This document shows, piece by piece, positions 867 through 2,909 of a stretch of 64,000 nt of DNA. The notes under the pieces are model-generated. The model was not told where the DNA came from. It searched no databases and saw nothing but the letters and a program-made list of their open reading frames with translations. The position numbers and the translations under genes are program-made. The DNA comes from an uncultured Desulfurococcaceae archaeon (lineage in GTDB: Archaea > Thermoproteota > Thermoprotei_A > Sulfolobales > NBVN01): positions 375 through 64,374 of the forward strand of contig CAZQFL010000007.1 in assembly GCA_964592745.1 (NCBI GenBank), written 5' to 3'. The number at the start of each line of letters is the position of its first letter. Position 1 is the first letter of the stretch.

Positions 867-964
867 ACCAAACTAATCTCCAAAACTTAAAGTAGTAAAA
901 CTGTGGTAAGAAACAACAAAACAAGAATATTGGTGGGGGGCCCCGACTGGTAGCGGGGGGTGGA

Positions 965-1682
965 CTCTCACGGGACGGCCGCCTTCACTCCGCGAGTAAA
1001 TAATGTGTTCAGCCTTTTAAAGCTTTACACATTAGTAGGATTTTTCTTGAGCGCATAAGTTTTTGTGGATGAAGAGGTGTGATCATACTAAATAACCTGC
1101 AGAGGTTCTCTCTTTTGCTAATTACAAGCTTATATGCGTAACCCCTTAAGATCCTATATATCTTGCTCTTTATCCCTAGATAATTAAGCATATCCTTAAT
1201 GTCTAATAAGCCTTGATAGTTAACTGAAGTTATAGTGACTCTACCAGTACTTAAATCTATGTGTGCTTCATCATCCATAAATGCTCTTAACCAGTTCTTC
1301 ATGAGTTCAGCTGCTTTTGCTGTGTCTGCTACGAGGAATATGCGTAACGGTGCACGCCACTCCTTAGATTTACCTGCCTTTAATAGTATTAATCTGTGAA
1401 ACGCGTACCTAGACTTAAAGCGCGCTATGAACACCTCCTTGTGCTTAATAATTATAGGGGATACGTTATACTCATATATAGCATCATTAATAAACTCGTT
1501 GATTAACTCAAGAGAGCTATTTGTATACTCCACAATATATCGCTTACCCCTCCTACCCACCTCAACATAAAGATGCCCATCACCACAAACGTGGGCATGC
1601 AATCTAGCCTCTCTTACAGAACGTAATCCCAGCCACATAAACATAAATCTGGTAAAAAAGGAAAATCAGGCGGCCGTCCCGT
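965..1682 (-). mobile_element. 718-nt BHB-type intron in the tRNA T-loop (position 59/60) carrying a LAGLIDADG ORF
   Basis: The hBHBh' motif reads: T stem GGUGG/CCACC, central 4-bp helix UUCA/UGAG, 3-nt bulges AAA (5' side) and AGU (3' side) on opposite strands, then a perfect 13-bp helix CGGGACGGCCGCC/GGCGGCCGUCCCG. Cutting after the second bulge nucleotide restores the T-loop UUCAAAU. Confidence 0.8.
1009..1644 (-). CDS. LAGLIDADG-family homing endonuclease (single chain, two motifs)
   Basis: 211 aa. Motif 1 is RLHAHVCGDGHLY and motif 2 is WLRAFMDDEAHID. Spacing and flanking patterns (YIVEYTNSS..., LLDIKDMLNYLGIKSKIYR) resemble I-DmoI-type enzymes of archaeal rRNA introns. The ORF lies wholly inside the BHB-bounded intron. 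Confidence 0.85.
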   Translation of the reverse strand: MFMWLGLRSVREARLHAHVCGDGHLYVEVGRRGKRYIVEYTNSSLELINEFINDAIYEYNVSPIIIKHKEVFIARFKSRYAFHRLILLKAGKSKEWRAPLRIFLVADTAKAAELMKNWLRAFMDDEAHIDLSTGRVTITSVNYQGLLDIKDMLNYLGIKSKIYRILRGYAYKLVISKRENLCRLFSMITPLHPQKLMRSRKILLMCKALKG

Positions 1683-1820
1683 TTTGAACCACCGACCTCG
1701 GGCTCGACCCTTGTCGGTGTGTCTCCGAGGCGGGCAACCCGGTTTTCCGGGTTGCCCGGTAGCCCTTATGAGCTTCGCGGATCGGGGGCTAAGCCCCCGC
1801 ATCTCCCGCGGGCTACCTGG

Positions 1821-2909
1821 CTACCCCACCCCGCTGCTCTGGCCCCCCGTTCTTGTTTCTTGTTTTTTAGTGTTTTTAAGCTTTGTTTTTATTCTCTCTT
1901 TGACTTTTCTCCAGTCTATTTTGCTTATGGTGTGTGGCCCGCATCCGTATGTTTTCGCTATTTCTATTTCTAGGTGTAGTTCTGTTGGTATTCCTAGCTC
2001 TTCGGATGCTCTCATTGCTTCAGCTAGTGATTTAGTGTTGATGAGTCTCTGTGGTAGTGGTTGTTGTTTAATTACCTTCTGTGGGTCTAGGAAGTATGTG
2101 ACTATCGTGTTTGGTGTTATCTTAATTCTCCTAGAACCACTCCTAATACTTAATTCGCCCATAACACCCTTAAGGGCTAGGTATGGTGCTCTACTAGCCT
2201 CAGTAGGTAGCCTTCTAAGTAGTTTCTCGTAGATATTCATGAAGTCCCTCCAAATACCTAGAGCACCTACGAGGCCACCCTCACTACCTACGTCAGCAAT
2301 TCTCTTAATCACGTAGTCATGATCCAGCTCTCCATCAGCACCAGGAGCTAGTATAGCAACTAAAGCCCTACTACTAAAGTAATGCAGAGATGCTAACGTT
2401 AGAGAATCAGCTAGTGGTGACCATAACGAGTCCTCATAACCGTAAGCAAGGATATCACCACCAACATCTAAGGCTATAACGGAATCGAAACCCTCATTCA
2501 TTAACTCCTCAACACACTCAACAATACCCTGAACTCCTCGCTCCAATGTAATACCAGGTATCGTAACACCACTTAACTCAGCAATAATTGATGCTTGAGG
2601 CCTAAACCTATAGTCAAAACCACGAACAACATAGGTATTACTACCCATATAAACACAAGCTGAATTCCTAATAGCATTACGTATTAAACACCTAGGTATA
2701 GGCCCAGGGTATGGGTCAAGAATCCAACGCTCCCATAGAATAGCTACAGGTATGCACTTCCTAACATTAACTAGTGATTTAAGTACCTCACACATCACGT
2801 AAGCAGATACTACATCTCCAGCACCACCAGCACCAATAACGATGACGCCACGCCTTAACAAATTTATTACGTTCAGCTCGCTACACCCTAACACTATACT
2901 TAAGAACAC
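1821..2909 (-). CDS. conserved archaeal protein, DUF1152-like (family name recalled, not verified)
   Basis: 362-aa ORF with an N-terminal VIVIGAGGAGDVV glycine-rich loop and a DVGGD motif. The last 15 nt overlap tRNA nucleotides 1-15 on the same strand. Confidence 0.65.
   Translation of the reverse strand: MFLSIVLGCSELNVINLLRRGVIVIGAGGAGDVVSAYVMCEVLKSLVNVRKCIPVAILWERWILDPYPGPIPRCLIRNAIRNSACVYMGSNTYVVRGFDYRFRPQASIIAELSGVTIPGITLERGVQGIVECVEELMNEGFDSVIALDVGGDILAYGYEDSLWSPLADSLTLASLHYFSSRALVAILAPGADGELDHDYVIKRIADVGSEGGLVGALGIWRDFMNIYEKLLRRLPTEASRAPYLALKGVMGELSIRSGSRRIKITPNTIVTYFLDPQKVIKQQPLPQRLINTKSLAEAMRASEELGIPTELHLEIEIAKTYGCGPHTISKIDWRKVKERIKTKLKNTKKQETRTGGQSSGVG

Follow-up and report, generated by a model that had tools for sequence, protein, structure and literature searches.

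An archaeal initiator tRNA gene that appears to be cut into five exons by four introns, the largest with a homing-endonuclease-type gene

Introduction

How transfer RNA (tRNA) genes become fragmented has long been debated for the archaea, where split genes, permuted genes and introns at odd positions all occur, and according to one review it is unknown how tRNA introns transpose (PMC4090602). Ribosomal RNA (rRNA) genes of crenarchaea are well known to contain introns bounded by the bulge-helix-bulge (BHB) motif that encode LAGLIDADG endonucleases, including I-DmoI (PMC4496867, PMC6125680). The documented maximum for archaeal tRNA genes is three introns (PMC8450103). A locus in a 64,000-nt (64-kb) stretch of DNA from an uncultured Desulfurococcaceae archaeon of a hot spring (contig CAZQFL010000007.1, positions 375 to 64,374; hereafter the window) raises the question of whether a mobile intron of the rRNA type can also occupy a tRNA gene. 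A first-pass annotation had read positions 948-1835 of the window, minus strand, as an initiator tRNA assembled from four GC-rich pieces and interrupted by three introns, one of which contains an open reading frame (ORF) with LAGLIDADG motifs. We find that the locus is probably an initiator tRNA-Met gene cut into five pieces by four BHB introns (at 30/31, 37/38, 39/40 and 59/60), and that the largest intron holds an intact homing-endonuclease-type gene.

Results

Five exons assemble into an initiator tRNA

The window has a mean GC content of 37%, and only two stretches in it (928-997 and 1667-1856) reach 70% GC or more. There is no other GC-rich island in the 64 kb, so nothing points to a further structured RNA gene. 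The first-pass annotation had placed the GC-rich pieces correctly, and its first exon (1835-1805) and 3' exon (964-948) are exact. We compared the locus with about 20 syntenic loci from related metagenome-assembled genomes (MAGs) and metagenomes, numbered with L below. Some were reached through close homologs of the ORF, and 12 by a DUF1152-alignment scan of species-representative genomes, all 12 from uncultured Desulfurococcales/Desulfurococcaceae MAGs and Zestosphaera tikiterensis. BHB geometry was assessed by a junction-specific check, which replaced an earlier automated BHB scan that was too permissive (thousands of chance motifs). The features that we propose are as follows, with bulges in brackets and cuts marked by a bar.

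948-1835, minus: initiator tRNA-Met(CAU) gene, CCA included, of five exons separated by four BHB introns (ARAGORN cloverleaf and match to the ortholog)
1805-1835, minus: exon 1, tRNA positions 1-30, AGCGGGGTGGGGTAGCCAGGTAGCCCGCGGG (conserved in all loci)
1774-1804, minus: intron 30/31, 31 nt, relaxed BHB (HBh'), CGCG[GG|A]...CGCG[AA|G] (central helix 4/4 pairs)
1767-1773, minus: exon 2, positions 31-37, GCTCATA including the anticodon CAT (the base after CTCATA is variable among alleles)
1721-1766, minus: intron 37/38, 46 nt, a hairpin without an ORF, BHB CTCA[TA|A]GGG...CTC GGAG[AC|A] (junction check)
1719-1720, minus: micro-exon AC, A38 and C39 (sole exon map yielding CTCATAACCCCGAGG)
1703-1718, minus: intron 39/40, 16 nt, hBHBh', outer helix GCCTCGG/CCGAGGT (junction check)
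1683-1702, minus: exon 4, positions 40-59, CCCGAGGTCGGTGGTTCAAA (assembly and allele comparison)
965-1682, minus: 718-nt T-loop intron 59/60 with a canonical hBHBh' motif (junction check and covariation)
1668-1681, minus: 5' arm of its inner BHB helix, CGGGACGGCCGCCT (sequence and junction check)
1009-1644, minus: homing endonuclease ORF, 211 aa, motifs HVCGDGHLY and LRAFMDDEAHI (Pfam, fold and conservation)
971-984, minus: 3' arm that pairs with 1668-1681, AGGCGGCCGTCCCG; next come TGAG (970-967) and the bulge AG|T (sequence and junction check)
948-964, minus: exon 5, positions 60-76 with CCA, TCCACCCCCCGCTACCA (assembly)

Joined in the order 1835-1805, 1773-1767, 1720-1719, 1702-1683 and 964-948, the exons give 77 nt that ARAGORN folds into a perfect tRNA-Met(CAT) cloverleaf. 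Zestosphaera tikiterensis (L018) has an ortholog without introns (AGCGGGGTGGGGTAGCCAGGTTAGCCCGCGGGGCTCATAACCCCGAGGTCGGTGGTTCAAATCCACCCCCCGCTACCA) that scores 65.1 bits against the Rfam tRNA model (gathering score 29) and occupies exactly the same syntenic locus; it differs from the assembled tRNA of the window only in one D-loop T. The hallmarks of an archaeal initiator tRNA recognized earlier (A1:U72, anticodon loop CUCAUAA, T-loop UUCAAAU) are all there, and the G29-31:C39-41 G:C pairs are added by the corrected assembly. Across lineages the exon sequences are 100% conserved apart from one D-loop indel, whereas a flanking-gene protein is only 50-60% identical. The feature is real, far beyond chance. 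In the unspliced DNA, ARAGORN found nothing even with introns allowed to 3 kb, and it found no tRNA in the whole 64-kb window. The unspliced locus also had no match to the Rfam tRNA model at a permissive or the gathering threshold, and no Rfam family reached its gathering score in the 64 kb.

Two adjacent introns flank a 2-nt exon

The first-pass annotation differs from our map in the anticodon region, where it had a single 62-nt anticodon-loop intron (1765-1704) between exons 1773-1766 and 1703-1683. By our map this intron is two introns and a missed 2-nt exon (1720-1719), which raises the count from three to four; each of the two neighbouring exons had taken in one intron base, and the mature tRNA had G39 for C39. 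ARAGORN still calls that 77-nt, four-piece assembly tRNA-Met(CAT), and a G does occupy the position in most alleles with an anticodon intron. However, the assembly is not canonical, having a G31·G39 mismatch within the initiator-defining G29-31:C39-41 stack, and alleles without these introns all read CTCATAACCCCGAGG with C39. Alleles with an anticodon-region intron all end ...GCCTCGGAGA(C/T)AC...GTC(G/T)(A/G)(G/A)CCCGAGG. Since A, G and T all occur directly after CTCATA, this base is intronic, and the 5' splice site is the canonical 37/38. Examination by hand showed no BHB geometry at the earlier junctions; the two-intron map fits every allele. At L019 (GTCTGACCCGAGG) the earlier map leaves the stem one base short and the 3' junction, GUCUGACCCGAGG, cannot give a proper stem, but with the micro-exon L019 and L150, which differ at that junction, still give the same, correct mature sequence. 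A three-intron gene with G39 opposite G31 thus has a very slim chance of being right. We also tried by hand many registers of a single anticodon intron ending before A38/G39, none of which had BHB geometry.

In the restored map the 37/38 intron ends ...CCUC GGAG [AC|A38] and the 39/40 intron runs from C39|... to GUCG[AG|C40], which leaves the exon AC between them. Judged from the alleles compared, two adjacent introns with a 2-nt AC exon are the only map that restores the conserved mature tRNA and removes the G31·G39 mismatch. All four introns show BHB geometry in every allele carrying them. The 30/31 motif of the window is of the relaxed form, with a central helix of 4/4 pairs, an inner helix of 3 bp and an outer helix of 0 bp. 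At 37/38 the central helix CUCA/GGAG has 3/4 pairs and the inner helix GAG(G)/(C)CUC has 3 bp, and with the neighbouring introns out there is an outer helix of 5 bp. This outer helix is the 5-bp anticodon stem, which forms once 39/40 has been removed and, in the window, needs 30/31 removed as well. At 39/40 the outer helix GCCUCGG/CCGAGGU (7 bp) draws on the 3' end of the 37/38 intron, the central helix AGAC/GUCG has 3/4 pairs, and the inner hairpin has 2 bp in the window and 2-5 bp among alleles. Both strands of this central helix have changed in L019 to AGAU/GUCU, which pairs at 4/4 (others have AGAC/GUCG). The 37/38 and 39/40 motifs overlap in that they have ACACA in common and compete for CCUCGG, and their folds are mutually exclusive.

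The whole gene would be transcribed as one precursor of about 0.9 kb, the archaeal splicing endonuclease EndA would cut inside each 3-nt bulge and the ligase RtcB would join the exons. With no outer helix at 30/31 and 3/4 pairs in the central helices at 37/38 and 39/40, such splicing would need a broad-specificity crenarchaeal EndA. The overlap of the two motifs and the need of 37/38 for an intact anticodon stem suggest that 30/31 and 39/40 would be removed first and 37/38 last, and in that order the AC exon would never be freed as a dinucleotide.

The T-loop intron encodes a predicted LAGLIDADG endonuclease

The interruption at 1682-965 had been described as a T-loop intron at 59/60 with a canonical hBHBh' motif, and our analysis bears this out. 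The T stem GGUGG/CCACC provides an outer helix of 5 bp, the central helix UUCA/UGAG has 4/4 pairs, and the bulges are AA|A and AG|U; the inner helix, CGGGACGGCCGCCU/AGGCGGCCGUCCCG, has 14 bp, where 13 had been counted. Cutting after the second bulge base restores the T-loop UUCAAAU. Over 10 alleles, 95.6% of cells in the inner helix are paired, with compensatory changes at 5/9 pairs. The observed covariation score was reached by 0/500 shuffles, and slid registers fall to 34-52% paired. Outside its terminal helix, the intron consists almost entirely of the ORF.

This ORF had been reported as intact, with 211 codons and two LAGLIDADG motifs, and the hidden Markov model search proposed with that report matched it to Pfam LAGLIDADG_3 (E=1.7e-12, 47.9 bits, cut-off 22.5). 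The catalytic acidic residues D22 (in HVCGDG) and E126 (in FMDDEA) are invariant in six homologs of 50-99% identity. An AlphaFold2 model of the protein (pLDDT 87, pTM 0.84) has two alpha-beta-beta-alpha-beta-beta-alpha halves. Results from Foldseek against the PDB had I-DmoI as the top 16 matches (E ~1e-10, best 8e-11; TM 0.65-0.78; 22% identity), followed by intein endonucleases and I-Tsp061I. HMMER against the PDB, with the single sequence or a profile, returned only intein endonucleases (E ~1e-3) and missed I-DmoI. From the modelled fold we infer that the 211-aa protein is a monomeric I-DmoI-like LAGLIDADG homing endonuclease with a predicted DNA cleavage activity and target.

The ratio of nonsynonymous to synonymous substitution rates (dN/dS) between intact endonuclease copies is 0.05-0.12, which is only qualitative because synonymous sites are saturated, and it points to strong purifying selection on the ORF. 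An exhaustive profile search gave about 800 homologs, 221 of them at E <=1e-10. By its sequence the protein is a member of the broad LAGLIDADG_3 family, in which the tRNA-intron clade is a small branch. Close homologs fall into five 90%-identity clusters only, all in one syntenic initiator-tRNA locus.

These features suggest that the 718-nt intron is a mobile element of the crenarchaeal rRNA-intron type. The encoded endonuclease presumably cuts the intronless T-arm DNA of a naive allele (...GGTGGTTCAAA^TCCACCCCCCGC...), recombinational repair would then copy the intron into the cut allele, and BHB splicing would make the insertion harmless to the host.

Alleles with and without the T-loop intron

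A survey for intron-plus and intron-minus alleles had been suggested in the first-pass annotation, and both exist among the related loci. The 59/60 site was found in these states:

L018, L152/153: no intron (in the L152 allele the intronless T-arm sequence is GAGGTCGGTGGTTCAAATCCACCCCCCGCTACCA)
L012, L017, L019, L020, L150: mini-intron of 24-34 nt with a BHB core and no ORF
Window, L001, L004, L008: intact endonuclease gene, sense to the tRNA
L009, L011, L014: fragmented endonuclease gene
L145 (1860-2630), L146 (330-1110): intact endonuclease gene (P0008) in antisense orientation, preceded by an AT-rich region of its own

Comparison of close relatives suggests that turnover at this site is recent. 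The flanks of L004 and L017 are 97.4% identical, yet the former has a 778-nt endonuclease intron and the latter a 33-nt mini-intron. The closest relative of the window is L009 (1750-2887), which has four introns alike, flanks that are 95.9% identical and a DUF1152 protein that is 95% identical. The ORF is intact in the window and broken in L009, where the T-loop intron is 969 nt and the endonuclease gene is in fragments of 111 and 101 aa. The broken ORFs in L009, L011 and L014 indicate that decay is under way. The antisense ORF in L145 and L146 implies expression from its own promoter and a cassette that fits in either orientation. The cycle of invasion, decay and loss of homing endonuclease genes was reportedly established by Goddard and Burt in 1999, and the five states at 59/60 are the pattern expected of such a cycle, with cleavage as a predicted step.

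Further ORFs, split genes and other tRNA hosts

The 37/38 intron of relatives is 1.2-1.4 kb and contains a second sense ORF of 334-395 aa with the motifs LILCDG and LLAGLIDGDGYVG, at the following loci:

L001, 1828-2859: second (37/38) ORF
L004, 1731-2795: second (37/38) ORF
L014, L017, L019, L150, L152: second (37/38) ORF also present

Only eight clusters of this ORF occur in 5.8 billion proteins, and every one examined sits in this tRNA locus. Its AlphaFold2 model has a pLDDT of 88, and the top fold matches are all LAGLIDADG proteins, although weak (E ~2e-3). The 46-nt hairpin intron of the window is the ORF-less counterpart of the 1.2-1.4-kb intron in its relatives. The 30/31 intron of L011 (1552 nt) contains a distantly related ORF that is antisense and broken.

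In L008 (2820-5000) and L020 (980-2300) the gene is split at 30/31, with the halves on opposite strands and a complementary leader and trailer of 11-18 bp (GCCCGCCGTCCC/GGGACGGCGGGT). Between the halves there is an intact LAGLIDADG-like ORF of 373-390 aa, of the same type as the 30/31 ORF of L011. The cis gene of L019 and the split gene of L020 share flanks of 94-96% identity, and the two loci match over the 3' part of the gene once this is inverted. This near-identity indicates a recent conversion between the cis and split forms.

The first-pass annotation had also suggested that an enzyme cutting the T arm could target many tRNA genes. Close homologs are all in the initiator locus; a more distant endonuclease homolog (P0013) lies in sense orientation in the 59/60 BHB intron of a class-II tRNA of another archaeon (L147 755-1560). 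Since P0013 occupies the 59/60 position of another tRNA, it is the site that is shared and not one enzyme. The T arm of this gene reads GUCGG UUCA AA|C...UGAA AA|U CCGGC, with the acceptor GCGGAGG/CCTCCGC and CTTAAG twice, and the gene is flanked by that for RNA polymerase subunit L on one side and by ribosomal protein genes on the other. ARAGORN gave no match to it; from its sequence it is probably tRNA-Leu(UAA), and its D-loop and anticodon region seem to be interrupted by additional introns. A related LAGLIDADG ORF (P0011; L022 2359-3154) does not lie in an intron but stands alone, some 70 nt downstream from an intact tRNA-Pro(TGG) gene. A metagenome scan with GGTTCAAAACGGGNNG for the same intron in other tRNAs gave at least 120 matches, nearly all of them chance; among the matches listed only L132 is real, an L001-type initiator tRNA, and the scan is uninformative on other tRNAs.

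Leader, trailer and neighbouring genes

Sequence elements on both sides of the tRNA gene are conserved as well:

1836-1880, minus: box CTTAAAAA (1880-1873), 37 nt upstream of the tRNA 5' end, with leader ACGGGGGGCCAGAGC (1850-1836); both kept in 13/13 alleles
931-947, minus: 3' trailer GTCGGGGCCCCCCACCA, with a C-run kept in the intron-bearing clade and absent in Zestosphaera

From its sequence and position we infer that the box CTTAAAAA is an archaeal TATA box. The trailer segment GGCCCCCC (942-935) is complementary to the leader segment GGGGGGCC (1848-1841), and the same is true in L001-L020. Such pairing might hold together the ends of the long precursor or, in split alleles, those of the two halves. 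The trailer (...GGCCCCCCACCA) also looks like a partial att-type duplicate, being similar to the 3' end of the tRNA (CCCCCC..ACCA).

The syntenic order is proteasome alpha subunit, DUF1152 protein and then initiator tRNA. In the window, the DUF1152 ORF (1821-2909, minus) upstream of the tRNA has its first stop codon at 1821-1823; as listed, it extends across the promoter box and leader of the tRNA and covers the first 15 nt of exon 1, whereas the DUF1152 gene of relatives stops about 40-180 nt ahead of the tRNA. Directly downstream of the tRNA (60-866, minus) there is a 268-aa ORF with hydrophobic segments and, at its N-terminus, a zinc-ribbon-like CxxC motif (KCPKCGRVGS).

Discussion

Together, these data support the idea that a BHB intron of the mobile rRNA type, with its endonuclease gene, sits in a tRNA gene, a combination that we found described only for archaeal rRNA genes. 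Several points weigh against our interpretation of the locus. Both ARAGORN and Rfam are blind to the unspliced gene, and a second intact initiator tRNA gene may exist elsewhere in the genome. The case is built on sequence, and every relative is a MAG or a metagenome contig. The 30/31 motif has no outer helix, and the central helices at 37/38 and 39/40 have 3/4 pairs in the window. To our knowledge, a 2-nt exon flanked by two BHB introns is without precedent. Lastly, the divergence of the endonuclease is about that of the host (62/54/54% versus 59/53/56% for DUF1152); because the two track each other, much of the history may be vertical inheritance with occasional loss.

An alternative is that insertions have destroyed this tRNA gene and that the working initiator tRNA is elsewhere. 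The blindness of standard tRNA finders here, and a view of the genome that is confined to the 64-kb window, are compatible with this. However, the exons are 100% conserved (one D-loop indel aside) beside a flanking protein that is only 50-60% identical, the BHB helices co-vary, the promoter box and leader are conserved, and Zestosphaera has its intronless gene at exactly this locus, all of which makes a dead gene highly improbable. An insert of another kind can be considered too. The cyanobacterial tRNA-fMet group I intron encodes the endonuclease I-SspI, and like the element proposed here it is a mobile endonuclease intron hosted by an initiator tRNA gene; unlike it, it is a self-splicing ribozyme in the anticodon loop, with another splicing chemistry, an endonuclease of another family and no BHB motif. 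Among bacteria, group I introns are known to occur in initiator tRNA genes (cited in PMC3218864 and PMC3984707). Nevertheless, the junctions of the 718-nt insert form a perfect BHB motif, nearly everything inside its terminal helix is coding, and no Rfam group I model matched positions 700-2100 with E allowed up to 10. The sole match in that permissive search was a chance, sub-threshold match to a small nucleolar RNA model (Pab19) on the opposite strand. We consider it next to impossible that the insert is a self-splicing group I intron.

The relation of the protein to its intron and host is open to other readings. It might have been domesticated, for example into a regulator that binds DNA or into a maturase-like helper that assists the long precursor in folding or splicing, and the strong purifying selection would fit this, as would the fact that maturases and WhiA regulators, which share the LAGLIDADG fold, are among the weaker fold matches. 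Set against this, neither catalytic acidic residue varies, BHB splicing, which relies on EndA and RtcB, has no need of a maturase, and the ORF is dispensable, being deleted or broken in very close relatives with the same tRNA; domestication is thus improbable. A separate origin of intron and endonuclease deserves more weight, although we think it rather unlikely. An ORF-less mini-intron would then be the older entity, ancestral and not decayed, and a free-standing LAGLIDADG cassette would have invaded its terminal loop later; the unit would still home once the ORF was inside. The occurrence of the ORF in both orientations within the same intron (sense in the window, antisense in L145 and L146 with an AT-rich upstream region), the free-standing P0011 beside an intact tRNA-Pro and the wide distribution of mini-introns all speak for this. 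On the other side, the helix arms of the L017 mini-intron (CGGGCTGGT.../...CCAGCCCGTGAGAG) are common to the ORF-bearing intron of the 97.4%-identical L004, and the broken ORFs in L009, L011 and L014 represent ongoing decay. Given the common arms and the broken ORFs, recent deletion of the ORF fits at least as well as insertion.

Our interpretation of a mobile, endonuclease-bearing BHB intron has its nearest parallel in the 23S rRNA intron of Desulfurococcus mobilis that encodes I-DmoI (also I-PorI, I-ApeI and I-Tsp061I). In both there is a BHB-bounded intron (here one predicted to be spliced by host enzymes, as that of I-DmoI is), a long terminal helix closing a nearly all-ORF loop and a monomeric (here by prediction) two-motif LAGLIDADG enzyme of about 190-210 aa, and the hosts belong to the same archaeal order. 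The differences are that the host gene here is a tRNA, at T-loop position 59/60, and not an rRNA; that identity is about 22% and undetected by HMMER; and that the predicted target is a 17-bp inverted-repeat T-arm. In Thermoproteales, tRNA genes with several introns (Sugahara 2008; Fujishima 2010; PMC8450103) also have BHB introns at 30/31, 37/38 and 59/60, relaxed BHB forms and close introns that have to be removed one after another (PMC8450103). By contrast, their introns are short and ORF-less as far as found, and here the lineage is Desulfurococcales and the gene has four introns and a 2-nt exon.

Breaks at the same positions, or in the same tRNA, occur in Thermofilum pendens, where tRNA-iMet is permuted at 59/60, and in Staphylothermus, where tRNA-Lys is split at 30/31 (Chan et al. 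2011, PMC3218864). As in L008 and L020, split tRNA genes of Desulfurococcales have halves close together on opposite strands. Unlike those cases, the window gene is predicted to be cis-spliced, the split alleles here have near-identical cis relatives (L019/L020), and a LAGLIDADG-like ORF lies beside the break; the passages of PMC3218864 that were consulted mention none for theirs. In Caldiarchaeum subterraneum a tRNA-Thr gene is disrupted by a recombinase-bearing mobile element (Sugahara 2012, as summarized in PMC4390854). There too, population heterogeneity at one tRNA locus ties intron gain and splitting to a mobile element, but the element carries a DNA recombinase and is not itself an intron, whereas here LAGLIDADG ORFs lie inside BHB introns.

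The first-pass annotation had described archaeal tRNA introns as short and ORF-less, and the literature agrees with this as far as it could be searched: no endonuclease ORF in an archaeal tRNA BHB intron was mentioned in the searchable literature, which leaves out most subscription journals, such that an earlier description is possible. The same literature had no report of four introns in one tRNA gene. The papers covered include major reviews of introns and gene disruption in archaeal tRNAs (PMC4090602, PMC4033280 and PMC4390854). The term "homing endonuclease" is absent from PMC4090602, PMC4033280 and the tRNAscan-SE 2.0 paper, and "homing" is absent from PMC4390854.

This locus directly ties a tRNA BHB intron to a homing-endonuclease-type gene and could explain how tRNA introns spread. 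It also offers a natural series at one gene, in which the site is empty or holds a mini-intron, an intact gene in either orientation or a decayed one, with further ORFs at 37/38 and 30/31 and a step from cis to split. The predicted target of the endonuclease is a short, defined sequence for which natural intron-minus alleles exist, and a thermostable I-DmoI-like enzyme recognizing a tRNA T-arm, if active as predicted, could interest meganuclease engineers. That standard finders miss an essential tRNA gene here matters for annotation and for estimates of MAG completeness. We put forward tentatively, as a possibility somewhat short of even, that LAGLIDADG homing is the missing DNA-level route of non-canonical BHB tRNA introns and seeds split genes, and that the window gene is the most fragmented cis tRNA gene on record that we found. 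If this is true, an inversion with a break in the 30/31 intron would turn a cis gene of the L011 type into a trans-spliced one of the L008/L020 type, and many short ORF-less tRNA introns would be decayed remnants of endonuclease-bearing elements.

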